DNA from: a virus | Direction: 5' to 3' (one strand) | IMG/VR virus record: IMGVR_UViG_3300043613_000002 | Coordinates: 1 to 43,586 of that record | DNA: 43,586 nucleotides | Shown here: positions 6,282-43,586 of the stretch, one piece after another | How the letters are laid out: every line of letters begins with the position of its first letter | Numbering within the stretch: position 1 is the first letter of the stretch | Translations under genes and position numbers: made by a program | The notes under the pieces: generated by a model | Told to the model about the DNA's origin: nothing | Databases searched by the model: none | What the model saw: only the letters and a program-made list of their open reading frames with translations

Positions 6282-7517
6282 ATGACGCAACGCGTCTTAA
6301 CCGCGGACATCATCGCTAAGGAAGCGATCATGATCCTCGAGAACAACTGCGTGATGGGCAATCTCGTCTATCGCGGCTACGAGGAAGAATTTTCAAATCA
6401 GGTCAACGGCTACGAGAAGGGTGAAACCATATCGATCCGTCGTCCGACCGACTTCACGGTCCGCTCCGGCGCGGTCGCCGCGGTGCAGGAAGTCATGGAA
6501 GGCAAGACCTCGATCACCGTCGATACCCAGGAAGGCGTAGACTTCAAGTTCACTTCTTCCGATCTGACCCTGCGCATCGGGGATTTGTCCCAGCGTGTGA
6601 TCAAGCCGGCGATGGTGCAGTTGGCAAACTCGATCGATATGAAGCTCGCTGCCCTTTACAAGGATGTCTGGAACTGGGTTGGTACGCCCGGCCTGACCGT
6701 CGACAGCTTCGCTGACTTTGCCAAGGCTCCGACCCGTCTCGACCTCGGAGCTGTGCCGGCTGACGACCGAAACGCGGTGCTGTCCCCGACAGACGAATAC
6801 GGCATGCTTGGTTCGCAGACTGCATTGTATATGCAGGAAGTGGCCAAGGATGCCTACCGTAACTCGAACTTGGGTCGGATTGCCAGGATCGATACGTTCT
6901 CAACCCAGAACGTGCAGACCTTCACGGCCGGCACCCGCGACAACACCACGCCGACCATCAAAGGCACGCAGTCCACCACATGGGCTTCGACCAAAGACAC
7001 CGGCACGATGTCTTTGAACACCGTTGGCTGGGATGCCTCTGCCACACTCAAGCAAGGCGACGTGTTCATCATCGATCTGGTGTTCGCGGTTAATCCCGTG
7101 ACCAAGGCAGTACTGCCGTATAATCAGCAGTTCGTTGTCAAGGCCGATGCGACCGCCAACGGCACCACGACCTCGACCACGACGTTGACGATCTCGCCGC
7201 CGATCATCACCTCCGGTGCGTTCCAGAACGTCAGCGCGGCGGCCCTGGACGCGGCCACGATCACGATCCTCGGCACGGCCTCGACCGGCTACGCCCAGAA
7301 CATGGTGTTCCACAAGAATGCCTTTGCGCTGGTCATGGTTCCGTTGGTCAAGCCTCCTGGTGCGGTGGAGGTCTCGCGGCGGTCCTACAAGGGCTTCAAT
7401 GTTCGTGTCATTCCTTACTATGACGGCACCAACGACCAGAGCAACTGGCGTTTGGACGTTTTGTACGGGGTGAAAACTCTGGACCCCCGTCTCGCCACCC
7501 GCCTGTCGGGCAGCTAA
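6282..7517 (+). CDS. Major capsid (coat) protein, P22 gp5-like
   Basis: 411 aa. The N-terminus MTQRVLTADIIAKEAIMILENN...RGYEEEF resembles P22-type coat proteins. Lies after the scaffold gene. Confidence 0.88.
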   Translation: MTQRVLTADIIAKEAIMILENNCVMGNLVYRGYEEEFSNQVNGYEKGETISIRRPTDFTVRSGAVAAVQEVMEGKTSITVDTQEGVDFKFTSSDLTLRIGDLSQRVIKPAMVQLANSIDMKLAALYKDVWNWVGTPGLTVDSFADFAKAPTRLDLGAVPADDRNAVLSPTDEYGMLGSQTALYMQEVAKDAYRNSNLGRIARIDTFSTQNVQTFTAGTRDNTTPTIKGTQSTTWASTKDTGTMSLNTVGWDASATLKQGDVFIIDLVFAVNPVTKAVLPYNQQFVVKADATANGTTTSTTTLTISPPIITSGAFQNVSAAALDAATITILGTASTGYAQNMVFHKNAFALVMVPLVKPPGAVEVSRRSYKGFNVRVIPYYDGTNDQSNWRLDVLYGVKTLDPRLATRLSGS

Positions 7518-24052: not shown

Positions 24053-24364
24053 ATGCACGAAATCAAAATTGGCGACATTCACGTTCACCTACACGTTAAG
24101 CCAGATCATCAGGTCGTAGCCCTGCTTAACGCTGTCTTCCCACGGCTCGACCTATTGGAGAGTAACATGACCGCACAGACCGACAAGCTGATTGCCGACG
24201 TACAGGCACTGATCACTGAAGCCGTGAACGACATTACCGCGGCTATCGCCAAGGCCCAGAACACGTCGCCCGATCCGGCGATCGACGCCCTGGATGCTCA
24301 GGTCACAGCGACCACCCAGCAGCTCAAGGATGCGATTGCCACTCTTAATCCGCCGACCGCCTGA
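24053..24364 (+). CDS. Hypothetical protein, last gene of the late operon
   Basis: 103 aa from ATG 24053 (GAGGAT RBS). An alternative internal start at 24167 is preceded by GGAGAGTAAC, identical to the RBS of ORF 137. Confidence 0.48.
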   Translation: MHEIKIGDIHVHLHVKPDHQVVALLNAVFPRLDLLESNMTAQTDKLIADVQALITEAVNDITAAIAKAQNTSPDPAIDALDAQVTATTQQLKDAIATLNPPTA

Positions 24365-24403
24365 ACCCGTGCCGGACGGATTCCGGCTCCTCCCAGACTT
24401 CAG

Positions 24404-24432
24404 GCCGCTGGCAGAAATGCTGGCGGCTTTTT
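24404..24432 (+). terminator. Intrinsic terminator ending the late operon
   Basis: 9-bp stem (24404..24412 pairs with 24419..24427, two G-U pairs), loop agaaat, then T5 at 24428..24432. Confidence 0.55.
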
Positions 24433-24445
24433 GCCGTCACTGCTA

Positions 24446-24559
24446 TCAAGAACGCTGTAGGCGGTGTGCCAGCCAGAATCCAAATATGAAGGCAGCGACT
24501 GGCAACAAATACAATACCAACTTCATTTCAAAGGCCAAGTTATAAAAATCGCATGTCAT
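24446..24559 (-). CDS. Micro-ORF, hydrophobic peptide (37 aa)
   Basis: MTCDFYNLAFEMKLVLYLLPVAAFIFGFWLAHRLQRS. Preceded by the conserved leader motif. Confidence 0.35.
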   Translation of the reverse strand: MTCDFYNLAFEMKLVLYLLPVAAFIFGFWLAHRLQRS

Positions 24560-24560
24560 A

Positions 24561-24577
24561 TTTCGTTCCTCAGTCAC
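24561..24577 (-). promoter_or_regulatory. Conserved leader motif copy L1 (GTGACTGAGGAACGAAA on the - strand)
   Basis: One of four near-identical TGACYRAGGAACGARA elements lying 2-8 nt upstream of an ATG. Confidence 0.7.
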
Positions 24578-24595
24578 TGGGCCGCTGCGTACTTG

Positions 24596-24826
24596 TCATG
24601 ATGGTTGCGGAATAAGATGTTCGACAACGAGTCCGCCAAATCTGTCGGCTCTAACTCGATAGTGTAGCGGCTTGTATTCGTCCACCAGCGCCTCAACCCA
24701 GATTTCCACGTCGATCGGAACATGTATGCCGAGTATCGCGGGAACGGCTGCGGCTGCATCTCGATAGACTCCAGTCTCGACCTTCAAGTCTCGCGGTGGG
24801 CCGCCGTTCACCTTTATTTTAAACAT
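24596..24826 (-). CDS. Hypothetical protein (76 aa)
   Basis: ORF track entry. Leader motif L2 lies 6 nt upstream of the ATG. Confidence 0.55.
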   Translation of the reverse strand: MFKIKVNGGPPRDLKVETGVYRDAAAAVPAILGIHVPIDVEIWVEALVDEYKPLHYRVRADRFGGLVVEHLIPQPS

Positions 24827-24831
24827 GTTAT

Positions 24832-24847
24832 TCTCGTTCCTCGGTCA
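24832..24847 (-). promoter_or_regulatory. Conserved leader motif copy L2 (TGACCGAGGAACGAGA)
   Basis: Read directly. Confidence 0.7.
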
Positions 24848-24917
24848 TGCTATGGTCTGCTGCGTATTTGATTGTTGTAGCGGCCCTTGCAGGGTTAGTT
24901 TGGCTGGAAGACTATTT

Positions 24918-24969
24918 GTATAAACCAACTTGACCGATCCCGTTCTCACTCGCTCAGCGGCTAAGTTCG
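24918..24969 (+). repeat. 52-nt bipartite element, copy 1 (GTATAAACCAACTT-N27-GGCTAAGTTCG)
   Basis: Read directly. The stop codon TAG of gene 24961..25188 lies inside the 11-mer. Confidence 0.85.
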
Positions 24970-25188
24970 ATCTGCTTGAGAGCACGGTAGTGGCAGCAAT
25001 TCCGGATGGTCATCTTTAAGATGATCCCGGAGCATCGCCATATAGTTTGGGACGTGCAGCACTTCAATATTACCGGGCATCGTGGCGCTGTCGCGCTCTT
25101 GAAACCAACTATCCCTACCCGGACGAAGGTCTTGCCAGACTCGCCACCCAAGCGCTTTGGCTATCTCTAAATTTGCCTCGTTATCCAT
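24961..25188 (-). CDS. Hypothetical protein (75 aa)
   Basis: ORF track entry. The ATG is preceded by a T8G8 tract on the coding strand. Confidence 0.5.
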   Translation of the reverse strand: MDNEANLEIAKALGWRVWQDLRPGRDSWFQERDSATMPGNIEVLHVPNYMAMLRDHLKDDHPELLPLPCSQADRT

Positions 25189-25191
25189 GCA

Positions 25192-25207
25192 CCCCCCCCA
25201 AAAAAAA
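25192..25207. repeat. Homopolymer tract C8A8 (G8 then... read on the - strand as T8G8), ending 3 nt upstream of ATG 25188
   Basis: Read directly: acccccccca aaaaaaag. Confidence 0.9.
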
Positions 25208-25302
25208 GATCCAAATATCCCCGATCGGGGTATAAAGGAACAAGAATGTTGACCGTCTTTCTTCCACCGCGACGGTCAGGCGGGATCGCAACACCATTCT
25301 AA

Positions 25303-25497
25303 TCATCCATCCTTGATGGCAGGATTGAACGGCGCGGAAGCTTTATCCTCGTGATATCGGCAAAAATATTTTATGGTTTCGCTTCCATCAATTACCAGAC
25401 ATCTAACTGTAGATGTTTCTCTCGATTTGCATATTGTGCAGCGCGCCACTAACTTGAATTGAACAATCTCGTTCATGGTCTTTCGTTCCTCGGTCAT
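25303..25497 (-). CDS. Hypothetical Cys-rich small protein
   Basis: 64 aa from ATG 25497, which lies inside leader L3, or 57 aa from ATG 25476, which lies 4 nt after L3 and is more likely. Confidence 0.5.
   Translation of the reverse strand: MTEERKTMNEIVQFKLVARCTICKSRETSTVRCLVIDGSETIKYFCRYHEDKASAPFNPAIKDG
25481..25496 (-). promoter_or_regulatory. Conserved leader motif copy L3 (TGACCGAGGAACGAAA)
   Basis: Read directly. Confidence 0.7.
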
Positions 25498-25507
25498 GAC
25501 GGCTTAC

Positions 25508-25561
25508 AGAACTTAGCCTATCACGTTTCTGTTCTGCATTGCCGCTCAAGTTGTACTATCC
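25508..25561 (-). repeat. Bipartite element copy 2, inverted (GGATAGTACAACTT-N29-GGCTAAGTTCT on the - strand)
   Basis: Read directly. Lies upstream (in the sense direction) of gene 25303..25497. Confidence 0.85.
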
Positions 25562-25567
25562 CCCCTC

Positions 25568-25723
25568 CTATTGCGGAGGATTGGTGGTAGGCGCGGGCAG
25601 CGGTTTCTTGCAAATGCGCTCGAAATTCCAGCGCATGAATCGGTTAAATTCCTCGGGAGGCATGGCGGCTAATTTGGCGATCTTCTCGCGCGGCGTCTGT
25701 TCTTTATTTTCTGTATCGTCCAT
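25568..25723 (-). CDS. Small hypothetical protein (51 aa)
   Basis: AAGGAGG lies 6 nt upstream of the ATG. Sequence MDDTENKEQTPREKIAKLAAMPPEEFNRFMRWNFERICKK... Too short for the ORF track. Confidence 0.5.
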   Translation of the reverse strand: MDDTENKEQTPREKIAKLAAMPPEEFNRFMRWNFERICKKPLPAPTTNPPQ

Positions 25724-25759
25724 CTCAATCCTCCTTGCAGCTTTGGTGAGCGGTGGCGG

Positions 25760-25957
25760 TCAAGAGCGTGGCCCGATGTAGGCGTGCAAGGCTTCAATCA
25801 ATTTCAGCAAAACAACGCCTGCGATCGCGCCGGCTTCAAATTCCGTGATTAGTGGTCGCGTGCCGTCAACGGCGTTAAAAATTGGAAAGCAGATAAGGGC
25901 GCTCATCCCAAGACCAAGAGCCTCAGCAAGTTTAAGCTTGGCAATAGTCATTGTCAT
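25760..25957 (-). CDS. Small hydrophobic protein (65 aa)
   Basis: ORF track entry. Leader motif L4 lies upstream. Confidence 0.5.
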   Translation of the reverse strand: MTMTIAKLKLAEALGLGMSALICFPIFNAVDGTRPLITEFEAGAIAGVVLLKLIEALHAYIGPRS

Positions 25958-25962
25958 CTTCC

Positions 25963-25978
25963 TTTCGTTCCTTGGTCA
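25963..25978 (-). promoter_or_regulatory. Conserved leader motif copy L4 (TGACCAAGGAACGAAA)
   Basis: Read directly. Confidence 0.7.
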
Positions 25979-26095
25979 CTAACGTCGGACTTTCCAGCTC
26001 GTATTGCAGATTCCGCAATGCCAACTATAGGCATTGACGCTCACTTTCCGACGCTGATCGCGCCAATGGAATAGGAAACACCATATTCGCTTCAT
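25979..26095 (-). CDS. Micro-ORF (38 aa), Trp/Cys-rich
   Basis: GGAGGAGG lies 5 nt before the ATG. The stop TAG abuts leader L4. Confidence 0.3.
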   Translation of the reverse strand: MKRIWCFLFHWRDQRRKVSVNAYSWHCGICNTSWKVRR

Positions 26096-26143
26096 GCCGT
26101 CCTCCTCCGCGGCCCTAGCCGCTTGTTGCCTGTTCCATGACGC

Positions 26144-26473
26144 CTAGGCGCAATCACGCAAAATGTTGCGAATTATGAGGCTGTCCATGCTCGGCACATC
26201 GTGCCGTTTGTAGACATCGTATTTCATCCCGGCCGGGACTTCATCGTCTGGCCTTCCTGCCAAGGCTCCTTCGTATATGTCGCAGGCCTGTGCCAAATAG
26301 ATCTGTGCATTGACGCGACTGAGGCCGCCACGATCACGGGCTGCGGCTATCATCTGGCGTAATTCGCCGATGGACAGCCTGCTCTGGGTGCTCTTTTCGC
26401 TGGCCATTCTCTTGTTCATCCGCTTTTCCCGGTAGTATTCTGGATAAACCAACTTTGATGCTGCCATTCTCAT
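26144..26473 (-). CDS. Hypothetical protein (109 aa)
   Basis: ORF track entry with a GAGGAA RBS. The first codons overlap repeat copy 3. Confidence 0.55.
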   Translation of the reverse strand: MRMAASKLVYPEYYREKRMNKRMASEKSTQSRLSIGELRQMIAAARDRGGLSRVNAQIYLAQACDIYEGALAGRPDDEVPAGMKYDVYKRHDVPSMDSLIIRNILRDCA

Positions 26474-26493
26474 TTCCTCAGCGGCTAAGTTCG
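26442..26493 (+). repeat. 52-nt bipartite element, copy 3 (GGATAAACCAACTT-N27-GGCTAAGTTCG)
   Basis: Read directly. The 11-mer starts 1 nt after the stop of gene 26495..26797. Confidence 0.85.
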
Positions 26494-26494
26494 T

Positions 26495-26797
26495 TCAAGA
26501 GGGCGGAATCTCGCCTTTGTCGTTCATTCGGTTGGTATCATCTACCGCCTTGCGGTAGCTGTCCTTGAAGTCCTTGTACGTCCGCGGCGCATCCCACATA
26601 TCAAGGATGGCAGCGCACTTGTCCTCGATCGACATTGAATGCCATCGGGGTCCTGGGCTGATGTGCCAGCCGGTATTGCCCTTGTCGATCATATCGACGA
26701 CACGAGCTTGGAACTTCTGTATTGAGGTACGCGGACACTTGCTCGGAGCGCCGCAGTATTTATCGCCGGTATTTCCGCAAACTTGACACTGGCTCAT
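26495..26797 (-). CDS. Hypothetical Cys-rich protein (100 aa)
   Basis: ORF track entry with AAGGAGGAG RBS. N-terminus MSQCQVCGNTGDKYCG. Confidence 0.55.
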   Translation of the reverse strand: MSQCQVCGNTGDKYCGAPSKCPRTSIQKFQARVVDMIDKGNTGWHISPGPRWHSMSIEDKCAAILDMWDAPRTYKDFKDSYRKAVDDTNRMNDKGEIPPS

Positions 26798-26813
26798 ATG
26801 CTTCTCCTCCTTT

Positions 26814-26823
26814 GAACTTAGCC
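26814..26823 (-). repeat. Isolated decamer GGCTAAGTTC (- strand), 16 nt upstream of ATG 26797
   Basis: Read directly. Inverted relative to the 11-mer of copy 3. Confidence 0.8.
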
Positions 26824-26830
26824 AACAGCG

Positions 26831-27082
26831 TTAGTGATGAAGCTCGGCGCTCTCGTCCTCATCGTCGGCATCATCGGCATCATCTTCTTCATCAATTAAG
26901 ACCTCCGCGTTCGGGTACCAGTCCTTAGCCCAGCGGGTAGCGGCATCGATAGGCTCGCCGATTTTGCAGGTTTTGAAATGATCCGGAACATCTCCCTCGA
27001 TTGGCGGCTGTTCCATCTTCCAATAGACATCGATCTGCCAGAAGCCCTTTTCGTGCAGCGAAATGACGGCATAGTCTTTCAT
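26831..27082 (-). CDS. Small protein with a poly-acidic C-terminal tail
   Basis: 83 aa. C-terminus LIDEEDDADDADDEDESAELHH. Confidence 0.55.
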   Translation of the reverse strand: MKDYAVISLHEKGFWQIDVYWKMEQPPIEGDVPDHFKTCKIGEPIDAATRWAKDWYPNAEVLIDEEDDADDADDEDESAELHH

Positions 27083-27260
27083 GGGAAATCCTCACTCAGT
27101 AGGACAGGTGGAGGATCTGGCGGCGGTGCGGGGACTGCTCAAAATTACCTTTTGGCCTCAATGAGCTCCATGCGCCCGCACCTTCCGTTAATACCTTGAT
27201 ATTGTTAGGACGTTTCACAACTTCTTCCCCCACCATTGTTAAAAAATGACGCTGTAATCG
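27083..27260. other. Non-coding gap next to the integrase; candidate attP region
   Basis: 178-nt gap immediately downstream of the int stop. The core sequence is not identifiable without the host attB. Confidence 0.3.
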
Positions 27261-28331
27261 TTAAGCTTTTTTAGCCTCGTCCCGCACCTTCCCATCTGGT
27301 GAGGGAATAGAAGTTCCGGGTTTGGACAGTTTGCCCATGTGCTCCGCGGCGAGCCGGCGCCGGTCAGCAGCCTTGGTGTAGAGGGCCGCCATCTGTCCCC
27401 CCTGCCATCCGAAGATCGCCTCCAGGGTCGCCACCGTGGCGCCGTTGTTCGCTGCGCGGGTCGCTGCGGCCTTCCTGATCCCGTGTCCCGACTTTGCTAT
27501 GCCGGCGGTCCGGCAGGCCTTCTTGAACATATTGCCAAGCGATTCCTTGCGGATGGGCTGTCCCTTCTTGCTGGCGATGATCGATAATTCCCCCAGCGGT
27601 CCGGCCTCCAGGATCTCTGCTAACTCCGGCAACACGGGGATCGTAACCCGCGTGTCGTTCTTCTCGGTGTCGATCGTGATGACGCCGTGTCGGATATGCT
27701 GCTTGCCGAGTTTGGCCGCATCGCCGCGGCGCAGTCCGGTGAAGCAATAGACGCCAAACATAACACGTTCGCGCGTTCCTAGCTTCCAATAAGCTTCGTA
27801 CTGCTCAAGTTCTTCTTCGGTCCATTCTGGAAAGCCTCTTGTCTTCGGCTTTCTCACTTTCTTTCCCGTGGTCGGATCTGAGCTGATGTGCTGGGCACCA
27901 ACCGCCCATTTGAACATGCCGCGCATAGTGTCGAGGAAATGCCGGCCCGCGAACGCCTTGCGGCGCTCAATGCCTTGGTCGATCGCCTTGTTGGTGATCT
28001 TCGATAGTGGCTGATTGCCGCCGGTCTTTAGAACCCCGCGCATGATGTTTTCGCGCTGCTTACGGGTAGCCATTGAAAGCTCGGTCCATGCGGTCGTCTG
28101 TCGATAGAGCATCCACAGCCATTCCAACGAGCCCTTGAGGGCCTTCCCTGCGGGCTGCGGTGACTTGCCGTTCAGCGCAGCTTGATAGGCTTCCTCAAAT
28201 TCCGTCGTGCCGTAGACAGCCTTTATGCGAATCCTCGGGCCTTTGCCGATGCGGACATACCAGACCGTTTTACCGTGGCGGTTGGTTTCCCGGTGAAGGT
28301 GGGGTGGGCGAGGGCGGGGCATGCCTATCAA
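27261..28331 (-). CDS. int: Tyrosine integrase
   Basis: Catalytic motifs GLRRGD, HGIRKAAATR and LYTK read directly. The likely ATG start is 28322 (MPRPRPP); the track start is TTG at 28331. Confidence 0.92.
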   Translation of the reverse strand: MIGMPRPRPPHLHRETNRHGKTVWYVRIGKGPRIRIKAVYGTTEFEEAYQAALNGKSPQPAGKALKGSLEWLWMLYRQTTAWTELSMATRKQRENIMRGVLKTGGNQPLSKITNKAIDQGIERRKAFAGRHFLDTMRGMFKWAVGAQHISSDPTTGKKVRKPKTRGFPEWTEEELEQYEAYWKLGTRERVMFGVYCFTGLRRGDAAKLGKQHIRHGVITIDTEKNDTRVTIPVLPELAEILEAGPLGELSIIASKKGQPIRKESLGNMFKKACRTAGIAKSGHGIRKAAATRAANNGATVATLEAIFGWQGGQMAALYTKAADRRRLAAEHMGKLSKPGTSIPSPDGKVRDEAKKA

Positions 28332-28501
28332 AGGACCACCTCCGCCTCAGTTTCAACCGGAATCTCTTTTTGCTCACCGCTGTCAACCGTAATCGAACCG
28401 TCCGGCTTGACCGTCACGCTTCGAACGCGCAGCCCGGCGCTCTCCGCAGCCTTGACGGCGCGGCGAACCTGAGCCTGCGTGAATGTGACGGCTCTGCTCA
28501 T
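28328..28501 (-). CDS. Small protein upstream of int (57 aa; Xis position, no recognisable Xis motif)
   Basis: MSRAVTFTQAQVRRAVKAAESAGLRV... taken from the internal ATG of the 158-aa track ORF. Confidence 0.55.
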   Translation of the reverse strand: MSRAVTFTQAQVRRAVKAAESAGLRVRSVTVKPDGSITVDSGEQKEIPVETEAEVVL

Positions 28502-28547
28502 ATCCTCTGATCCGCAAGCTCTGCCGGCGATATGGCATCGATTTCGA

Positions 28548-28913
28548 TCATGACTTGCCGCTGTCCGTCGATGCGACGGCTGAGAGGTCTCGAATTTGAG
28601 CGGCCGTCGCTTCCCATCCATTATTCGCGGCGATCTTCGCGCATTCCTCGATTGCTCCATTCCAGCCGGCGTTGAAGCCAAGATCGTGAAGCTCATCGCA
28701 TTTCTGCAAGATCGGATTCGACGCTCGTTGGGAGCCATCGCGGAATGCTTTCTCAAGCATTGCTTCAAGCTCGGCGATGCGCTTGTCCTTGGCATCACAG
28801 GCATCTCGCCACATCTTCACAGCGTCGTTCACGCCAGCATCTCCCAAAACCACCAAACCAGAACGACGGCGGTAAACACAGCCATCGCCAGCCATATCCA
28901 GCGCCATTCCCAA
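28548..28913 (-). CDS. Hypothetical protein
   Basis: Track ORF of 121 aa. The start is uncertain (TTG 28913, ATG 28907, or later). Confidence 0.5.
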   Translation of the reverse strand: MGMALDMAGDGCVYRRRSGLVVLGDAGVNDAVKMWRDACDAKDKRIAELEAMLEKAFRDGSQRASNPILQKCDELHDLGFNAGWNGAIEECAKIAANNGWEATAAQIRDLSAVASTDSGKS

Positions 28914-28932
28914 ACGTCGGACTTGCGGCCGG

Positions 28933-29127
28933 TCATGACGGTGGAAACGCGGCGTTGAACTGAGCTAACAACTCATCTGGATTCATACCAATCTCCTTTA
29001 GAAAGGCATCGAGTTCGGCACCTTCCAACTTCATAAAAATATCATCCGCCCCGCGAAGGCAGGCCCGACAATACTCGCCTTCCGGCAGGTCGTTGCCATT
29101 GGCGCAACAGATGCAGCCCAAGATCAT
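28933..29127 (-). CDS. Hypothetical Cys-rich protein (64 aa)
   Basis: ATGA coupling to the upstream gene. Confidence 0.5.
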   Translation of the reverse strand: MILGCICCANGNDLPEGEYCRACLRGADDIFMKLEGAELDAFLKEIGMNPDELLAQFNAAFPPS

Positions 29128-29324
29128 CGGAAAGCCTTTCTTGGAAAATCCATCAAGACATTAGACGGTTTTGGACCAAGGCCATTCTGCCAAAGAAATA
29201 TTTCGGTTTCGAGTGACGCCATGCGCTCGTAGGTAGCGCGACGTTGCGGCGAAAGTTTTGGAATAACGATCTCGGCTTCTGCCGGCGTCAGGTGCAGGTA
29301 TGCTGTGAGCTGCTCGTCAGTCAT
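29124..29324 (-). CDS. Hypothetical protein (66 aa)
   Basis: ORF track entry. Overlaps the upstream gene by 8 nt. Confidence 0.5.
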   Translation of the reverse strand: MTDEQLTAYLHLTPAEAEIVIPKLSPQRRATYERMASLETEIFLWQNGLGPKPSNVLMDFPRKAFR

Positions 29325-29499
29325 TTTTCACTCTCCCCGCACAAAGCCGCTGATGCCGCCGCTGGCCACGCCGATCCATCCAGTCACAGAGTTCGCTGAA
29401 AAGAATCCACAGCACATCGAAAGGCAGCAACAGCAGCCACAAGACGGCTGTCAGGAGGAGGCCGGCGACGATCTTAACCCGGAGCGGATAGTCGTTCAT
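29317..29499 (-). CDS. Small TM protein (60 aa)
   Basis: Internal ATG at 29499 forms an ATGA overlap with the upstream stop. Contains the hydrophobic segment IVAGLLLTAVLWLLLLPF. Confidence 0.45.
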   Translation of the reverse strand: MNDYPLRVKIVAGLLLTAVLWLLLLPFDVLWILFSELCDWMDRRGQRRHQRLCAGRVKND

Positions 29500-29690
29500 G
29501 GCTCCACTCGTCGAGCGAGAAGAGCTAGAATTGCATCTGCTTTTTCCAGTAGCCGAGCTATCCTCAAACCAAAGACAACATCGGCCCAAAGCTTTCCGTT
29601 TTCGGCAAGTATGCCTTTTTCCATCAACAGATCATATTCCACGTATAGATCCGGGTTTATGATCCGAGCGATTTTCTCGCGGTTCGTCAT
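29496..29690 (-). CDS. Hypothetical protein (64 aa)
   Basis: Internal ATG at 29690, ATGA-coupled to the upstream stop. Confidence 0.5.
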   Translation of the reverse strand: MTNREKIARIINPDLYVEYDLLMEKGILAENGKLWADVVFGLRIARLLEKADAILALLARRVEP

Positions 29691-29794
29691 GTCTCCACCA
29701 TCTGTGCGCGCCGTTCCCATCTCTTGTCGTTCCATGCCATCCAGGATACGAGGATGATCACGACGTACAGTCCGATCATGAATGGGTGCGTCAT
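29687..29794 (-). CDS. Micro-ORF, single-TM peptide (35 aa)
   Basis: MTHPFMIGLYVVIILVSWMAWNDKRW... ATGA-coupled at both ends. Confidence 0.4.
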   Translation of the reverse strand: MTHPFMIGLYVVIILVSWMAWNDKRWERRAQMVET

Positions 29795-30474
29795 GGCTGG
29801 GTTTCCGGAGCGGAGGAGGACTGCGCTACAGCCATTTCGATTGCATCTCCGCAACGTTGGCAGTGCCACTTACCGTCGAGGCTGATTATCGCGGCATGCG
29901 CGCAGCTCTCGCCCGTTACTGGATCTGCGGCGGGCTGTTCCGGGGGTGATGCGAGCGCGGCTAGATATCGGTCGGCATATCGTTTACCGAGCCCATCGAA
30001 TGGTCGATTATCAGCCATAAAATATGCCACGATGATCTCGCGCAACGTTAATGGCTCGTAGCAATCTATCTCGATAGGAATATCCAGATCCCTCCCCCGC
30101 AATGGGGAGGCCGGTTGGGCGATGAGAACGGCTCTTGCTTTTTGATGGGGACATTCACCCATTTCATAAGCGCTCTCAGCATCCCTCGAATGCCCCATGC
30201 AGGTGCAGTCGGAAAAGCCCTTTAGGTTGGCGGCCTGCCGTTCATACGCGAGCAAATCCAGCAACGCTTCTCGCTCCCCACCAACCGCAGGCGTGGCAGC
30301 GAGAGCTGCCAGAACCGCAGCCCGCTTGCTCACATGCATCTGCATCGTGATCATGTCGTTGTTGTCGGGGATCTGGTGGGCGATCTCGTCGGCGATGTCG
30401 GTCGTGGTGCCCATGCGATTGGGCTGGCTGGTGGAGAGGACTTCGGCGTGGCAGTCGGGGCAGGTTTTGGTCAT
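29791..30474 (-). CDS. Hypothetical Cys-rich protein (227 aa)
   Basis: Starts MTKTCPDCHAEV. The ATG at 30474 forms an ATGA overlap with the upstream micro-ORF. Confidence 0.6.
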   Translation of the reverse strand: MTKTCPDCHAEVLSTSQPNRMGTTTDIADEIAHQIPDNNDMITMQMHVSKRAAVLAALAATPAVGGEREALLDLLAYERQAANLKGFSDCTCMGHSRDAESAYEMGECPHQKARAVLIAQPASPLRGRDLDIPIEIDCYEPLTLREIIVAYFMADNRPFDGLGKRYADRYLAALASPPEQPAADPVTGESCAHAAIISLDGKWHCQRCGDAIEMAVAQSSSAPETQP

Positions 30475-30641
30475 GACAAAAATCCCACACACAGAGCACC
30501 AACCACGCCGACGATAATGAGCAGCCAGCCGTTTCCGGAGGTGCTGTACATGCTAGGCGCAGGGCTGCTGTATTTGGCGCCGCTCTCAAGCAAAAGCCAC
30601 ACCACGCCAACCACAGCGACAATTCCAAAAAATGCAGTCAT
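30471..30641 (-). CDS. Micro-ORF, two-TM peptide (56 aa)
   Basis: MTAFFGIVAVVGVVWLLLES...WLLIIVGVVGALCVGFLS. GAGGAA RBS. Confidence 0.45.
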   Translation of the reverse strand: MTAFFGIVAVVGVVWLLLESGAKYSSPAPSMYSTSGNGWLLIIVGVVGALCVGFLS

Positions 30642-30680
30642 TTTATTTCCTCAAGCGAGAGCGTGTGCATTTGGTCATTT

Positions 30681-30732
30681 GGATAGTTCAACTTTCATGC
30701 TGATCGGATCATTCGCGCAGCGGCTAAGTTCG
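30681..30732 (+). repeat. 52-nt bipartite element, copy 4 (GGATAGTTCAACTT-N27-GGCTAAGTTCG)
   Basis: Read directly. The stop TAG of gene 30724..31029 lies inside the 11-mer. Confidence 0.88.
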
Positions 30733-31029
30733 TTCGCCATTCGCGAGCGCGCGTAGCGCCGGCACGATGCGATCTAGATTGTTGTGCAGAAGGCAAAGCA
30801 ACTCGCCCAGCTCCGGCGTCACGTACTGAGCCACCTCAACCGTCAGATTATCGCCCATGTGTTTGGCGGTGTACCTGACATGGTTAAAGTGGTCCGTCCC
30901 GTCCTTGTAGGAGTGAGGCTCTTCCTCAACTCGCCATTCCTCACGGTGCTTGGACCAAAGCAGGCGAAGGCGGTCGGCTAGTTCGATGTTGTTCACGTGA
31001 CTGTTTTCCTCTCTACTGATGATCGTCAT
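30724..31029 (-). CDS. Hypothetical protein (101 aa) bracketed by inverted repeat copies 4 and 5
   Basis: ORF track entry. Confidence 0.55.
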   Translation of the reverse strand: MTIISREENSHVNNIELADRLRLLWSKHREEWRVEEEPHSYKDGTDHFNHVRYTAKHMGDNLTVEVAQYVTPELGELLCLLHNNLDRIVPALRALANGERT

Positions 31030-31040
31030 CTATCTTTCTT

Positions 31041-31093
31041 GGTACTTAGCCGCTGCGCTTCTGTTCATCCGTGACATTCAAGTTGAACTATAC
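31041..31093 (-). repeat. Bipartite element copy 5, inverted (GTATAGTTCAACTT-N28-GGCTAAGTACC on the - strand)
   Basis: Read directly. The 15-nt GCGCAGCGGCTAAGT is identical to copy 4. The element ends 11 nt from ATG 31029. Confidence 0.88.
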
Positions 31094-31100
31094 AAATCCT

Positions 31101-31166
31101 TCAAGCGAGAGCGACGAACGCAAACAGGAAGGTAAGGAAGAGGGCGATGGTCAGGGCTGTGATCAT
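31101..31166 (-). CDS. Possible 21-aa hydrophobic micro-ORF
   Basis: MITALTIALFLTFLFAFVALA. GGAGGAACGACA precedes the ATG. ATGA overlap with the HNH gene stop. Confidence 0.2.
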   Translation of the reverse strand: MITALTIALFLTFLFAFVALA

Positions 31167-31936
31167 TGTCGTTCCTCCGGCTGTTGCCTAATGGCGGTCA
31201 TGAAGACTTCTTTTTCTTTCTCCGAGAGATCGAAGAAGCCATGAATGACGGCGGAAACTCTTTTTAAGCTGGCAGCTTCATCGGTATGCGAAAAGCGCTC
31301 AGCGCCAATCCCACCAAAGGTTGGCAAAAGAGGCGTCAAAAGCGCCCGCTCCTCTGTCCAGCCCCTATCCAGGCGCAGCAGGAACGCGTCATACTTCAGG
31401 CCGACCATCTCTGCAGCTTCTGAAGCGGGCATGGGGCGACCGAAGAAAGTAATAACTCTACGGCCTCGACGGTTTCGCATTTGCTGCGTTTTGGTCGCCC
31501 AGCGGCAGTTTCCGGGCTCGTAATTTCCGTCATTGTCGATCCTGTCCAGCGAATGCTTGGGAGACGGCTTGCGGCCCATATTCTCTAAGAACGCGGGATA
31601 GCTGTTGAGCCATCGTTCGCAGACTGAGATTCCGCGACCTCCGTAATAGGAAAAGCTATCGTCCTTCGGGTCCGTGCATCGGCGGATAAAGCCGCGCCAG
31701 CAAGATAGTTCTGGAGCGACATTCCCGCGTTCGGCGTCGCCATGCTTGAAGCTTCGGAGGCCCAATTGGCTTTTCTTAATGCATCCGCAGCTCTTTGATT
31801 GCCGAATACTGCCCCCACGCATAATTTTTTCGTTTCCGCAGTCGCATCTAATATTCCAAAGAGAGACCGGTCCAGCGTAGCTGACGACATTTATCATGCC
31901 AATCTTGCGACCAGCCATATCAATTAGCTGCCTCAT
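31163..31936 (-). CDS. HNH-type endonuclease-like protein
   Basis: HSLDRIDNDGNYEPGNCRWATKTQQMRN is an HNH_3-like motif. The internal ATG at 31936 is ATGA-coupled to the upstream stop. Confidence 0.68.
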   Translation of the reverse strand: MRQLIDMAGRKIGMINVVSYAGPVSLWNIRCDCGNEKIMRGGSIRQSKSCGCIKKSQLGLRSFKHGDAERGNVAPELSCWRGFIRRCTDPKDDSFSYYGGRGISVCERWLNSYPAFLENMGRKPSPKHSLDRIDNDGNYEPGNCRWATKTQQMRNRRGRRVITFFGRPMPASEAAEMVGLKYDAFLLRLDRGWTEERALLTPLLPTFGGIGAERFSHTDEAASLKRVSAVIHGFFDLSEKEKEVFMTAIRQQPEERQ

Positions 31937-32229
31937 TTCGGAGCCCTCAACGTCATGGCAAGAATGAACGGATCTATTCCATGACTGGACCAAAAAGAAA
32001 TTTCATTCATGCTGTGTTGTTCACGATGGTGATTATTACAGAGGGGCAAACACCAAATATCTGAAGGACGCTCAGAGCCTCCGGTTTCGCGTTTTCCATG
32101 CTCCAAACTCGCCGTTCGTATATGCGCCGCCTCAGTGTCGATGCCTCCACAGATGCAGCATGGCAAAGACCTAATAAATCTGAGATGGGCCTCATTCCGG
32201 ACGCGCGGTTCTTTCTGGCGTAGCGTCAT
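31933..32229 (-). CDS. DUF968 / NinG-like Cys-His protein
   Basis: LPCCICGG..EAAHIRT..PSDIWCLPLCNNHHREQH. The ATG at 32229 is ATGA-coupled. Confidence 0.62.
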   Translation of the reverse strand: MTLRQKEPRVRNEAHLRFIRSLPCCICGGIDTEAAHIRTASLEHGKRETGGSERPSDIWCLPLCNNHHREQHSMNEISFWSSHGIDPFILAMTLRAPK

Positions 32230-32768
32230 GCTCCGACCCTCTGCCAAGCCTGGAATTGATCGTCTAGTTGCTTCCAAATCATTCTCGCGGCATGGTTCAC
32301 TCCGAAAGCCGAGCGAGAATTTACGCCACATAGAAAGCGAACGACATCAGCCGCATTGTATTCGCATGCTATCCAATCGTCGGCGTATTGCTCGCGGAGG
32401 AATGCCTCAAACACAGCATCATCGCAGCGGATGCCGGCCTGCTCAGTCGGAGGAACATCGCGCCAATCACGCTTATCGCGCTTGGCCCCTGCCGACTTGG
32501 GGGCAGACAGGGGCCGCGCATCAATGATGTTGTTGGATGGTTGGGGATTTGGCATCACCTCCTTTGTTTGAATTGCCTGTTCATCGTCACCGACTTGCAC
32601 CAAGGCGACGATGTAACGAGAGCCAAGCGGAGCCTCGGCAAGACCCTTCGGAACGTCATGCGGATGCACAACGAAGCTGATGACAACGCCATCCTTTGTC
32701 TGTCGATAGGCGTGCTTGACACCTTCGAAGTGGATGGCGTTGGCGGTTGCTAGGTCTGCCGGGGTCAT
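32226..32768 (-). CDS. Hypothetical early protein (180 aa)
   Basis: ORF track entry, ATGA-coupled at both ends. Confidence 0.6.
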   Translation of the reverse strand: MTPADLATANAIHFEGVKHAYRQTKDGVVISFVVHPHDVPKGLAEAPLGSRYIVALVQVGDDEQAIQTKEVMPNPQPSNNIIDARPLSAPKSAGAKRDKRDWRDVPPTEQAGIRCDDAVFEAFLREQYADDWIACEYNAADVVRFLCGVNSRSAFGVNHAARMIWKQLDDQFQAWQRVGA

Positions 32769-32923
32769 CGTTCTGCCTTGTCATATTTGCGAACCGCGGA
32801 CTGAACCGCATCCGCTGTGAACTGCATTCTTGTCTTGCGAGCCAATCGACATGCGACCTCACGCCAGCATTGCCAGATGCCGTACAGGCGAAGCGCCTCA
32901 TTGATGTCGATTGGCTCACGCAT
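32765..32923 (-). CDS. Small hypothetical protein (52 aa)
   Basis: MREPIDINEALRLYGIWQCWREVACRLARKTRMQFTADAVQSAVRKYDKAER. TGATG and ATGA coupling to its neighbours. Not in the ORF track. Confidence 0.45.
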   Translation of the reverse strand: MREPIDINEALRLYGIWQCWREVACRLARKTRMQFTADAVQSAVRKYDKAER

Positions 32924-33591
32924 CAGGCGGCCTTCTTGGTAAGAACTGCCCGGCGATCAATGACCGCGGTCTTGAGCGTTTGAACTTGGGTGCTATCAAG
33001 CTGGTATTCCCGCCGCGCCTTCTTCTGCGCATCAGAGTTCCACCAGGTGCCGAGCAACTCAGCGTCATCGAACTGGGCGATGGCTTCCCGGCATTCGACC
33101 ATGAAGGCGTTGCGCTCAAGCATCGGGACGGCCTTTTCTGCCGGAGCATCGTCGCCAACGTTGGTCTGTTGTTTGTCGTAAAGGGCGAGGCCGAACGGAT
33201 TGCCGAATGTCATAAAGGCGCGCTTCATAGAATCAGTCTCGGCTTCCTTGATCGCGCTCTCATGAGCCTGACCAAGATCCCGGTCTATCCCGTGACCGGC
33301 GCCAAAGCCTTCGCGCGCCACGCCATTAATGATGATGCGAGACTTGCAGACGTAGGTGACGCCCCAGCCTGGAGCCTTCTGCTTGCCGATCTCGCGCTCT
33401 TTCTCGGCAACGCACTTCACGTCAATGGTTTCGCGGGTCCAGTTATCGAACCCGAAGATGCGATTGGCTTCTGCGATGACATGCCAGCCTTCGATATAGC
33501 TGACCCGACTTCCGCCTTGTTCGCGTGTTTTAACGCTGCTGGGAGAGAGCTTGGCAGCGAGTGCTGATTTGGTTTCGTCGGAGAACATCAC
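32923..33591 (-). CDS. Rad52/Rad22-family single-strand annealing protein
   Basis: SYIEGWHVIAEANRIFGFDNW...ETDSMKRAFMTFGNPFGLALYD is characteristic of the Rad52 fold family. Confidence 0.85.
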   Translation of the reverse strand: MMFSDETKSALAAKLSPSSVKTREQGGSRVSYIEGWHVIAEANRIFGFDNWTRETIDVKCVAEKEREIGKQKAPGWGVTYVCKSRIIINGVAREGFGAGHGIDRDLGQAHESAIKEAETDSMKRAFMTFGNPFGLALYDKQQTNVGDDAPAEKAVPMLERNAFMVECREAIAQFDDAELLGTWWNSDAQKKARREYQLDSTQVQTLKTAVIDRRAVLTKKAA

Positions 33592-35011: not shown

Positions 35012-35113
35012 TCACAGGTTAATAATGAGCAGATACAGAGAGCCGTATGATCCGATCACGACGGCAACCGAGGCGGCGAGGAAAAGGGTGGTGTGGCGGG
35101 AAGTCAGGATCAT
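35012..35113 (-). CDS. Micro-ORF, TM peptide (33 aa)
   Basis: MILTSRHTTLFLAASVAVVIGSYGSLYLLIINL. TGATG overlap with the upstream stop. Confidence 0.3.
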   Translation of the reverse strand: MILTSRHTTLFLAASVAVVIGSYGSLYLLIINL

Positions 35114-35892
35114 CACGCTGCCTCCAGCTCAGTAAGAGCGAGCCACTGGACGCCCGGCACCTTCATTTCGATTAGGATCTGGACGACGCCTTCCGCGAAG
35201 TCCGCGAGCGATTTATCGCGAGCGTAGGCGGCGTCGGCGGCGTCGGCGGCGTCGACGTCGGCGGCGTAGGCGGCGGCGGCGGCGTAGGCGGCGGCGTCGG
35301 CGGCGTCGGCGTAGGCGGCGTAGGCGGCGGCGGCGGCGTCGGCGTAGGCGGCGTAGGCGGCGTAGGCGGCGTAGGCGGCGGCGGCGGCGGCGGCGGCCTG
35401 TCGCGCTGAGCGCGCGACTTCGTGGGCATCCAACGCAGATTGCCGAGTGCCTTCGATCTCGCAACGGTTCGCCGCATCACGCAGTGCCTGAACATGCTTC
35501 GGGTCTTTGTGGATCGAAGCAGCGGCACGCAGTGCGATCGGAACGGAAGTCTTCGTTGCCAGAACCGCACAGTGGGTTGCAAATTCCTTAGCGTCCAGAT
35601 GACCCTTGCTGCCAAGTTGGATCACAGCGAGACGACGGAGGCCCTTGGCGCGCGCTTGATCAGACGACCAGCGAGAATCGTTCAGTCGGATTTTCAGAGA
35701 ACGAAGCGAAGGCGCGACGCACTGCGGATCATCACCGTGGGGCAGGCCGAGCGCGTAGCACACGGCGGCCTCGACGCACATCTGACCCGGGATCGGATTG
35801 CCGACACCATTGACCAAACCTGCATCAACGATCTCGAGAAGCTTGATAACAACGTCTTTGGTGATTTCGGGCTGCATTTTTGCTTGATCCAT
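35113..35892 (-). CDS. First PL-operon protein; globular N-domain plus an Ala/Tyr/Asp low-complexity repeat
   Basis: 259 aa. Contains AAYAAYAAYADAAAAAYAAYADAADAAAYAAAAAYAADVDAADAADAAYA. Confidence 0.68.
   Translation of the reverse strand: MDQAKMQPEITKDVVIKLLEIVDAGLVNGVGNPIPGQMCVEAAVCYALGLPHGDDPQCVAPSLRSLKIRLNDSRWSSDQARAKGLRRLAVIQLGSKGHLDAKEFATHCAVLATKTSVPIALRAAASIHKDPKHVQALRDAANRCEIEGTRQSALDAHEVARSARQAAAAAAAAYAAYAAYAAYADAAAAAYAAYADAADAAAYAAAAAYAADVDAADAADAAYARDKSLADFAEGVVQILIEMKVPGVQWLALTELEAA
35222..35397. repeat. GCN-triplet / 9-nt tandem repeat tract (gcggcgtag, gcggcgtcg and gcggcggcg units)
   Basis: Read directly. Four consecutive ggcgtaggc units lie near 35340..35380. Confidence 0.9.
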
Positions 35893-41716: not shown

Positions 41717-41850
41717 AACCATACAAGCTTGACTCGATAAGCGACGAAGAAAAGGAACGCCAAAAAAAAGCCAAGGCTGACTACCTTGCGCGGCTGGAGG
41801 AGTCGAGGAAGTGGCTGAAAGAGTACGTGCGGCCGACGATCAATGGCTAA
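41713..41850 (+). CDS. Small hypothetical protein (45 aa)
   Basis: ATGA-coupled. Its stop TAA lies inside a GGCTAAGTT motif. Confidence 0.45.
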   Translation: MKPYKLDSISDEEKERQKKAKADYLARLEESRKWLKEYVRPTING

Positions 41851-41855
41851 GTTTC
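41845..41855 (+). repeat. 11-mer GGCTAAGTTTC, 16 nt upstream of ATG 41872
   Basis: Read directly. Same decamer family as the accessory-region repeats. Confidence 0.75.
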
Positions 41856-41871
41856 AGGAAGGACTACGGAT

Positions 41872-42045
41872 ATGAGCGATTTTGATGATGTTCACGAATC
41901 TTGGAAGAAAGCCAAACGCGAATATGACCTCGCAGAACGCAATTTAGCTATGGCGAGAGCGCGTCTTACTGACGCTGATCGCTCCAAACAAGCCGAGTGG
42001 GATAAGCTGGTGGAACGAGCGCGGGTTAGTGCGACTGCTTACTAA
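41872..42045 (+). CDS. Small hypothetical protein (57 aa), bracketed by inverted 11-mers
   Basis: MSDFDDVHESWKKAKREYDLAERNLAMARARL... Not in the ORF track. Confidence 0.45.
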   Translation: MSDFDDVHESWKKAKREYDLAERNLAMARARLTDADRSKQAEWDKLVERARVSATAY

Positions 42046-42056
42046 CGAACTTATCC
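42046..42056 (-). repeat. Inverted 11-mer variant (CGAACTTATCC on the + strand, GGATAAGTTCG on the - strand), directly after stop 42045
   Basis: Read directly. One mismatch to GGCTAAGTTCG. Overlaps a small hairpin, TTATCC-gaacag-GGATAA. Confidence 0.7.
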
Positions 42057-43426: not shown

Positions 43427-43586
43427 ATGAGCCTTTGCAAAAATCGCAGCGTTGGCCAGCAATTCTTGGCTGAAGAAGATCAGACCATGGAGCAGATCAG
43501 CCAGCTCATGGCTGCGAATGAGTGCTTCGTGGATACGAACGAGAATAATTGGCGATTTGATCCGGTAACGCTCAGGTGGGTCAGAG
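43427..43586 (+). CDS. 5' part of the junction-spanning hypothetical ORF (continues at 84..112 in the circle)
   Basis: GGAGG lies 5 nt before the ATG. Runs through the terminal repeat. Confidence 0.45.
   Translation, partial: MSLCKNRSVGQQFLAEEDQTMEQISQLMAANECFVDTNENNWRFDPVTLRWVR
43504..43586. repeat. Terminal direct repeat copy 2, identical to 1..83
   Basis: Read directly. Confidence 0.95.

Follow-up and report, generated by a model that had tools for sequence, protein, structure and literature searches.

Organization of slot b

The stretch of DNA analysed here (the window) is IMG/VR virus record IMGVR_UViG_3300043613_000002, a complete viral genome of 43,586 bp from a soil phage, whose genes between ~24.4 and 36 kb lie on the minus strand. 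Within this region, a full copy of a bipartite element of ~55 nt (26439-26496, plus strand as written) and an inverted copy of its decamer (26814-26823) bracket a single gene encoding 100 amino acids; we refer to this arrangement as slot b, to the enclosed gene as its cargo and to the flanking elements as arms. On the gene strand, the full element lies 3' of the cargo. This 3' arm consists of box A (26442-26455, GGATAAACCAACTT), a spacer of 27 nt (26456-26482) and box B, which is the decamer (26483-26492), followed by a G at 26493; positions 26483-26493 together read GGCTAAGTTCG. Between the element and the TGA (26497-26495) of the cargo gene (26495..26797, minus strand) lies one base, 26494, and this stop codon comes 3 nt before the 3' decamer. 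The cargo gene has a strong Shine-Dalgarno (SD) sequence (AGGAGG) 8 nt before its ATG and no match to a Pfam or PHROG family. At its 5' side, exactly 16 nt (26798-26813, minus strand; AAAGGAGGAGAAGCAT on the gene strand) separate the inverted decamer from the ATG at 26797, and the layout of this SD spacer matches that of other 5' arms.

The inverted decamer is followed by another 22 nt of arm sequence, in which box A is missing. This 5' remnant (26814..26845, minus strand) encodes the last four codons, ELHH (26834-26845), and the stop codon (26831-26833) of the upstream gene (26831..27082, minus strand), an 83-residue protein with a conserved N-domain and a variable acidic tail. Outside the 3' arm lies the downstream gene, a conserved coding sequence of 91 residues from ATG 26419 (26144..26419, minus strand), and its upstream extension (26420-26473) enters the arm. 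The initial annotation had placed the full element and the inverted decamer correctly to the base, spacings included, and its description of the locus as the third cassette of one family holds, with ~22 nt of arm in addition to what it took for a bare decamer.

Pattern scans and a profile hidden Markov model (HMM) built from 19 copies were used to locate the element. The profile matches 26439-26496 (nhmmer, E = 2e-12) and also 26811-26851, the latter corresponding to the inner ~40 nt of the arm (HMM positions 22-61, E = 0.003-0.005). The exact decamer occurs five times in 43.6 kb, compared to ~0.08 expected (2 x 43586 / 4^10), and 12 matches with at most one mismatch compare with 1.67 +/- 1.30 in shuffled sequences, none of 100 shuffles reaching 12. 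The composite AACTT-N24-30-GGCTAAGTTC is found four times in the window and not at all for a reversed control. Since the decamer counts exceed those of the shuffles and the composite is absent from the reversed control, the pattern is not due to chance. With its convergent decamers, an SD after the 5' decamer and a co-oriented cargo of open reading frame (ORF) size, slot b has the defining features of the arm family described below, and we give about even credence to the reading that 26439-26845 is one accessory-gene slot of a phage-borne family.

The downstream gene starts outside the arm

The initial annotation also suggested that the element can carry or overlap the 5' end of a gene, as the long ORF 26144..26473 translates the 14-mer of box A as K-L-V-Y-P-E. 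This reading (MRMAASKLVYPE...) is indeed present, and so is the reading MKVELSK-stop in the fourth copy of that annotation. In the latter, the 14-mer frame gives V-E-L-S-K rather than K-L-V-Y-P, and we rejected the 14-mer as a conserved peptide because the frames differ between copies. Moreover, none of six homologues of 26144..26473 has an N-terminus encoded by the 14-mer. They are 91 residues long, apart from one of 118 residues with an unrelated extension, and all begin with MNK(R/K)..., their first residue aligning with Met19 in the long ORF, which corresponds to the conserved start at ATG 26419. In four contigs that encode 91-residue homologues, the preceding gene lies directly upstream, with neither element nor decamer. 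Conversely, the related phage G004, described in the next section, has the arm and lacks the gene, and the arm-borne ORF of G004 (MRMAASKLYYPN...) stops after 26 codons.

These comparisons indicate that the long ORF is a normal gene prolonged upstream into the arm, its N-terminal extension being an artefact of ORF calling. Because an ATG is missing or in differing frames among 18 3' arms, the element carries no conserved gene start, and the arms contribute 3' ends and stop codons, not gene starts. As GAGGAA lies 6 nt before ATG 26467, which is the start used by IMG's own 107-residue call (P0001), this phage alone may produce a non-conserved N-extended isoform of the 91-residue protein.

Slot b in a mosaic relative

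G004 (IMG/VR 3300049926_000041, seen as L133) is a collinear mosaic relative of the window. In 24.0-29.4 kb the two share only short stretches of 22-64 nt with identities of 84-100%, in addition to one stretch of 220 nt at 23.6 kb. Several of the shared stretches sit at gene boundaries, and most of the DNA between them has no DNA match; given these positions, the accessory array appears to contain several kinds of conserved linker, of which the arms would be only one.

Both boundaries of slot b are kept in G004, with different ORFs between them. At the 3' side, the 27-nt spacer and the decamer of the arm are identical to those of the window (G004/L133 5925-5967), and box A reads GGATAGTAC where the window has GGATAAACC. 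At the 5' side, the remnant of 32 nt (GAGCTTCATCACTAACGCTGTT-GGCTAAGTTC, that is, ELHH-stop-CGCTGTT-decamer) is identical at 6403-6434, and the decamer at 26814 is thus conserved at the homologous position. The content of the slot is 321 bp with one ORF of 100 residues in the window, whereas G004 has 439 bp and two unrelated ORFs, which encode 75 and 68 residues. Upstream of the slot, the two phages have unrelated genes that nevertheless share the ending ELHH-stop, for which the common 32 nt code. The ELHH tail is missing from all 15 homologues of the window's upstream gene, and four contigs with such homologues show no arms nearby. As G004 shares the 3' arm spacer and the 32-nt remnant and holds other ORFs and another upstream gene, the decamer at 26814 is best read as a 5' arm that was probably truncated when the upstream gene was replaced. 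G004 also lacks the 91-residue gene 26144..26419, and its homology to the window (26104-26143) resumes 19 nt past box A of the arm.

Homologues of the slot b cargo (P0009 and P0010, 72% identity) are encoded in other phage contigs without any decamer, with a different N-terminus and a longer C-terminus. For these reasons, slot b probably holds an accessory gene of an ordinary kind, both ends of which were reshaped at the junctions.

Paired arms in unrelated phages

Besides the window, the element is found in five other viral genomes (G001-G005), two viral fragments (L015 and L035) and ~15 metagenome contigs from soil or rhizosphere; G005 is a prophage of Bradyrhizobium sp. URHD0069. In the six phage genomes, every copy sits in a convergent pair with the decamers inward (11 pairs and one cut by a contig end), and convergent decamer pairs number 12, against one for a reversed-motif control. 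With the metagenome loci included, there are 21 cassettes in total. The DNA between the decamers spans 200-770 bp with one or two ORFs, in all 21 cases co-oriented with the operon, and tblastx showed all 21 cargos to be mutually unrelated. A GapR-like DNA-binding protein and an N6/N4 DNA methylase are among them, as are many ORFans and a weak match to DUF551 that falls below the threshold. The cargos in the slots of the window itself have no match to Pfam or PHROG families.

Orphan DNA methyltransferases are typical anti-restriction accessory genes. Among the cargos, the ORF at G001 47701-48444 (minus strand) matches the Pfam family N6_N4_Mtase, and a 174-residue cargo of L035, with a DPPY motif and no Pfam match, was counted with them.

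On the gene strand, the 5' arm reads GGATAGTACAACTT, ~27-31 nt and CAGCGGCTAAGT(T/A)C, with the SD immediately after, and the 3' arm, its inverted counterpart after the ORF-sized cargo, reads GAACTTAGCCGCTG, ~27 nt and AAGTTGAACTATCCAAAT. Arms on the 5' and the 3' side fall into separate subtypes according to the direction of transcription: box A has GTAC in 10/15 5' arms and GTTC in 10/15 3' arms, the decamer variant with GTAC is confined to 5' arms, and the spacers too have subtype consensus sequences. The arms also supply translational punctuation. An SD of the AAGGAG type lies 3-4 nt past the 5' decamer, with the start codon mostly 11-27 nt downstream of the decamer, and TAA, TAG and TGA stops fall in or beside the decamers; a TAG in the 3' decamer terminates ~8 of the 21 cargo ORFs, and the TGA in an adjoining GCTGA terminates another two.

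The arms are common to phages that share no protein, as exemplified by the window and the Bradyrhizobium prophage G005, the arms of which are 84% identical over 64 nt. A search of 50,697 GenBank phage records gave no match to the arm, and the sole true match in a scan of 185,579 species genomes was the prophage of Bradyrhizobium sp. URHD0069. Among 401 genomes of the host family, one has arms, within a prophage, and the Bradyrhizobium genome G006 shows no enrichment of the decamer (4 occurrences, compared to 15 for a control); a host origin of the arms was rejected on these counts. A further pattern scan of IMG/VR added only doubtful bare matches.

Cargo turnover and breakpoints

The clearest case of cargo turnover is a single frame represented by G002, L187, L189, L193 and L195, in which near-identical left and right arms enclose five unrelated cargos of 205-577 bp. 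The homology among the five ends exactly at the inner edges of the decamers. Similarly, two slots of G001 have arms ~95% identical, one of them holding the GapR-like gene and the other the DNA methylase. Turnover is also seen outside the arms. L187 carries 187 extra bp immediately outside its 5' arm, flanking sequences cease to match shortly past the arms, and the window has, next to the 3' arm of slot b, the 91-residue gene that G004 lacks. Both the outer and the inner edges of an arm are thus breakpoints. Since cargo and flanks differ while the arms match, even between phages sharing no protein, the arms are islands of homology between DNA that is replaceable on both sides.

Both the cargo genes and those beside the slots are of ordinary phage types that are also encountered away from arms, and the idea that they are always associated with arms was discarded given the homologue contigs without arms. 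An empty slot, defined as two decamers 0-30 nt apart, was sought in IMG/VR, and the sole match was an unrelated AT-rich terminator.

Other slots and features of the window

Three further slots are found in the window. Slot a (24914..25561, minus strand) has a 3' arm at 24914-24974, a 5' arm at 25503-25561 and a cargo of two small ORFs. Slot c (30677..31098, minus strand) has a 3' arm at 30677-30738, a 5' arm at 31041-31098 and a cargo ORF of 101 residues, the stop codon of which is the TAG within the decamer. Slot d (41845..42056, plus strand) is reduced to bare decamer variants, GGCTAAGTTT and GAACTTATCC, that flank an ORF of 57 residues; it shows the same spacing of 16 nt to the ATG, and the TAA of the upstream gene falls inside the first decamer.

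Several other features lie near these slots. In slot a, the ATG of the second ORF (24961..25188) is preceded, at a distance of 3 nt, by a C8A8 homopolymer tract (25192-25207; T8G8 on the gene strand) that might be prone to slippage. The gene immediately upstream of slot c (31163-31993, minus strand) encodes an HNH endonuclease of 276 residues (PHROG 374, E = 9e-61), to which tblastn found no match in the five other arm-bearing genomes. It is followed by a DUF968/HNHc-like ORF (31933-32331, minus strand) with matches in G001/G003 (42% over 88 residues). The integrase gene of the window lies at 27261..28331. A GC-rich tandem array of 9-nt units (GCGGCGTAG/GCGGCGTCG) occupies 35180-35422 within the ORF 35113..35892. 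The window ends carry an identical direct repeat of 83 nt (1-83 and 43504-43586), and in IMG/VR the record is classified under direct terminal repeats, with a completeness of 100%.

A model for the exchange of cargo

The present comparison provides insights into how single accessory genes might be exchanged. We propose that accessory slots for single ORFs are bounded by the arms as conserved modules and that their cargo is swapped by recombination. The architecture of the slots, the turnover of their cargo and the places of the breakpoints are seen in the sequences, and the recombination pathway and the reason for the inversion of the arms are inferred; we hold the proposal with a confidence that is evenly balanced. 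New genes would first be captured by illegitimate recombination. Cargo and flanks might then be swapped between co-infecting phages or prophages through recombination within the arms, with enzymes that could be either host functions or single-strand-annealing proteins of the phage. The early-left operon of the window encodes such an annealing protein, of the Rad52/22 family (32923..33591, minus strand; Pfam E = 2e-38). At slot b, one exchange would have removed box A of the 5' arm when it brought in another upstream gene, leaving the decamer and 22 nt, and a separate event would have put the 91-residue gene directly outside the 3' arm.

Several points weigh against this proposal. The longest perfectly conserved runs between arms of unrelated phages are ~14-18 bp, which is short for homologous recombination of the RecA type. 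No cargo is common to two slots or frames among the 21 cassettes by tblastx, and movement of a cassette between slots is thus not directly seen. Annealing proteins of the Rad52, RecT or ERF kind were detected in only two of five arm-bearing lineages, namely Rad52/22 in the window and a RecT-like protein in G005, and the other lineages have none of the three. Searches for an arm function were negative as well: Rfam gave no match at E <= 5 on both strands of 24300-31400, a consensus scan of 24300-27400 for promoters and terminators found nothing at any arm, and no RNA structure of the arms was detected. In addition, a simple exchange of linkers does not explain why the arms are inverted and bipartite, nor why their boxes are strongly conserved across unrelated phages. 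A site-specific system, insulators and an RNA stalk stay as rivals for that reason, and transposon ends and invertible segments are less likely than these three.

One rival is a dedicated recombination machinery, which we consider unlikely. In its broad form, the arms would be recognition sites of a machinery that is most likely encoded by the host and that cuts or exchanges DNA at the decamers, constituting a phage-borne, integron-like platform that captures and swaps single ORFs, anti-restriction methylases included, among unrelated temperate phages of soil alphaproteobacteria. The corresponding exchange mechanism, which we regard as similarly improbable, is a recombinase, probably host-encoded, that acts on the bipartite arms at the decamers, in a phage-borne capture system resembling integrons or recombinase-mediated cassette exchange. 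It would account for the homology that breaks exactly at the inner decamer edges with five cargos in one frame, for the survival of decamers alone after loss of the remaining arm (5' side of slot b, slot d), for boxes conserved 10/10 across phages without shared proteins, and for a cargo as ORF-precise as that of integron cassettes. However, the precision is partly trivial because hardly any spacer lies between arm and ORF. A shared enzyme was also sought: no protein family is present in more than three of the five arm-bearing lineages, and their phage integrases belong to different families. Inverted sites should permit flipping, but none of the 21 assembled cassettes has an inverted cargo, a count that refers to assemblies only. 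The decamer is unenriched in the host genome, as described above, and the arms have no known core-type site architecture. They also lack attC-like folding, with mean z-scores of +0.53 for 16 5' arms and +0.28 for 18 3' arms, no better than shuffled sequences; a structured RNA or attC-like hairpin was discarded on these z-scores of ~0, the only inverted repeat within an arm being the 5-bp AACTT/AAGTT.

A second, rather unlikely alternative is an RNA device, in which the 5' and 3' arms would pair (14 bp + 14 bp) around the cargo ORF to form a processing stalk or to control stability or translation. The sequences CAGCGGCUAAGUUC/GAACUUAGCCGCUG and the box A pair are complementary, arms and cargo are always on one transcript, and the decamers lie right at the SD and the stop codon. 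Against such pairing, no covariation was found between partner arms, and compensatory changes are absent: a 5' decamer with GTAC partners GTTC in 6/6 cases, and the preference of box A for GTAC in 5' arms and GTTC in 3' arms would result in a systematic A-A mismatch. Moreover, slots b and d retain decamers only, individual arms are unstructured, and the Rfam search was negative.

The arms might instead serve as insulators, a doubtful reading in which a host or phage protein bound to inward-facing arms, similar to stoperators, silences or isolates the cargo, so that a polymerase or translocase meets an identical signal from either side. The symmetry of the arms relates to the cargo and not to the direction of transcription, and two conserved boxes at a fixed spacing of ~27-31 nt, separated by a less conserved spacer and maintained in both orientations, would suit a bound protein. 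By contrast, a candidate protein common to all lineages was not found, the motif is unused in host genomes, and nothing ties the slots to lysogenic silencing.

The arms could also be the terminal inverted repeats of a non-autonomous transposon, resembling a miniature inverted-repeat transposable element (MITE), that carries a passenger gene and depends on a transposase encoded elsewhere. The bipartite inverted ends of ~55 bp and the spread of the family over unrelated phages would fit, as would significant flanking direct repeats in three of 17 cassettes: slot c of the window has a repeat of 13 bp, L194 one of 11 bp and G005 a diverged one of ~48 bp. However, the other 14 cassettes have no flanking repeat and the three repeats vary in length and distance, and target-site duplications were rejected accordingly; the ~48-bp repeat of G005 is a diverged duplication of the first codons of the downstream gene. 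Furthermore, the arms keep their place and the cargo varies, whereas a transposon would behave in the opposite way. Arms of one pair do not resemble each other more than arms of different pairs do, within-pair differences being no smaller than those between pairs, and the 5' and 3' arms are distinct subtypes linked to the direction of transcription. No transposase was found, and the single arm-bearing genome among the 401 of the host family has its arms in a prophage; altogether, transposon ends are improbable. As to the duplication in G005 (L125/L210, 3996-4460), the first ~16 codons of the downstream gene (MTEKDSFDLWHEWANKD...) have a diverged duplicate (MTKDPFDQFWEWANKE) directly upstream of the 5' arm, which runs into box A and then stops.

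Finally, although inverted repeats flank segments of 200-770 bp, invertible segments that switch the cargo on and off, like invertons or shufflons, are very improbable, as all 21 assembled cargos are co-oriented with the operon, no invertase common to the lineages was found, the arms are asymmetric subtypes, and relatives show the cargo replaced rather than flipped. Altogether, motif-mediated modular shuffling by a mechanism that we infer is the best reading of the slots.

Significance and comparison with known systems

Accessory regions of phages are where anti-defence and lysogenic-conversion genes turn over, and the acquisition of these genes is poorly understood. A motif pair of ~55 bp that marks ORF-sized slots and recurs in phages without shared proteins provides a handle for the hypervariable accessory genes in soil viromes, and the slots bounded by it give a testable model for the origin of mosaic junctions. 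Slot b further indicates that an arm may shrink to its decamer and still mark the slot, as observed in two phages. The arms also mislead ORF callers, as in the false N-terminal extension of 26144..26473 and in the remnant that supplies the tail of the upstream gene. In addition, they are a possible natural docking site for the engineering of Bradyrhizobium-type phages.

Several known systems resemble the arms in part. The stoperators of cluster A mycobacteriophages are sites of 13-14 bp that all point in the direction of transcription and are recognised by a repressor which the phage itself encodes. Similar to the arms, they are short asymmetric motifs present in many copies in tiny intergenic gaps by start and stop codons; in contrast, the arms are inward-facing pairs around single genes, and a common repressor was not found. 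The mycobacteriophage elements MPME1/2, which Sampson et al. are said to have described in 2009, reportedly move as a unit with one conserved ORF and inverted repeats of 11 bp. MITEs and MPMEs resemble the slots as small phage units of 0.3-0.8 kb bounded by inverted repeats and holding a small ORF, whereas in the slots the arms are fixed, the cargo differs each time, and there is no consistent target duplication.

Integron cassettes contain diverse, promoterless, ORF-precise cargo, and their attC sites, ~55-60 bp in length, have short inverted core motifs and often include the stop codon in the 3' site. The slots share all of these features, the length of the site included. However, an IntI-type integrase and attI were not found with the arms, and the arms lack the imperfect hairpin of attC (z ~0). 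Each integron cassette has one attC, compared to two separate arms per slot, and the slots are scattered in operons rather than arrayed.

Conserved linkers at gene boundaries, together with relaxed homologous recombination, reportedly shape temperate phages, as the modular theory of Susskind and Botstein and later work by Clark et al. in 2001 and De Paepe et al. in 2014 are said to hold. The arms resemble such linkers in that mosaic junctions fall at short conserved boundaries and the window phage encodes a protein of the Rad52 type. Between 24.3 and 29.4 kb, the window and G004 also have conserved stretches of 26-64 nt in common at many gene boundaries. Unlike the arms, the linkers have no defined bipartite motif, do not form inverted pairs and are not shared across unrelated types of phage.

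The closest known system to the arm-bounded slots is the promoter-early stem-loop (PeSL) cassette of T4-type phages, in which short conserved intergenic motifs border small, mostly ORFan genes in plastic regions (Arbiol et al. 2010, PMC2839356; Comeau et al. 2014, PMC4122927). In these accounts, PeSL motifs are exchange points between otherwise unrelated sequences, with the end-points of insertions and replacements in the motifs, and each PeSL is a unit of sigma-70 promoter and terminator stem-loop that lies in direct orientation and forms mini-circles (PMC2839356, PMC4122927). The arms, in the same way, bound ORFan turnover by a motif, and the end-points of insertions, deletions and replacements fall in that motif. 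Compared to PeSLs as described there, the arms show neither a sigma-70-like promoter nor a terminator stem-loop, and the hexamers CTTGAG and CTAAGT of the arm lie 26-27 nt from each other. They are bipartite and form convergent inverted pairs with distinct 5' and 3' subtypes, and they reside in temperate phages of soil alphaproteobacteria, where they are common to phages without shared proteins.

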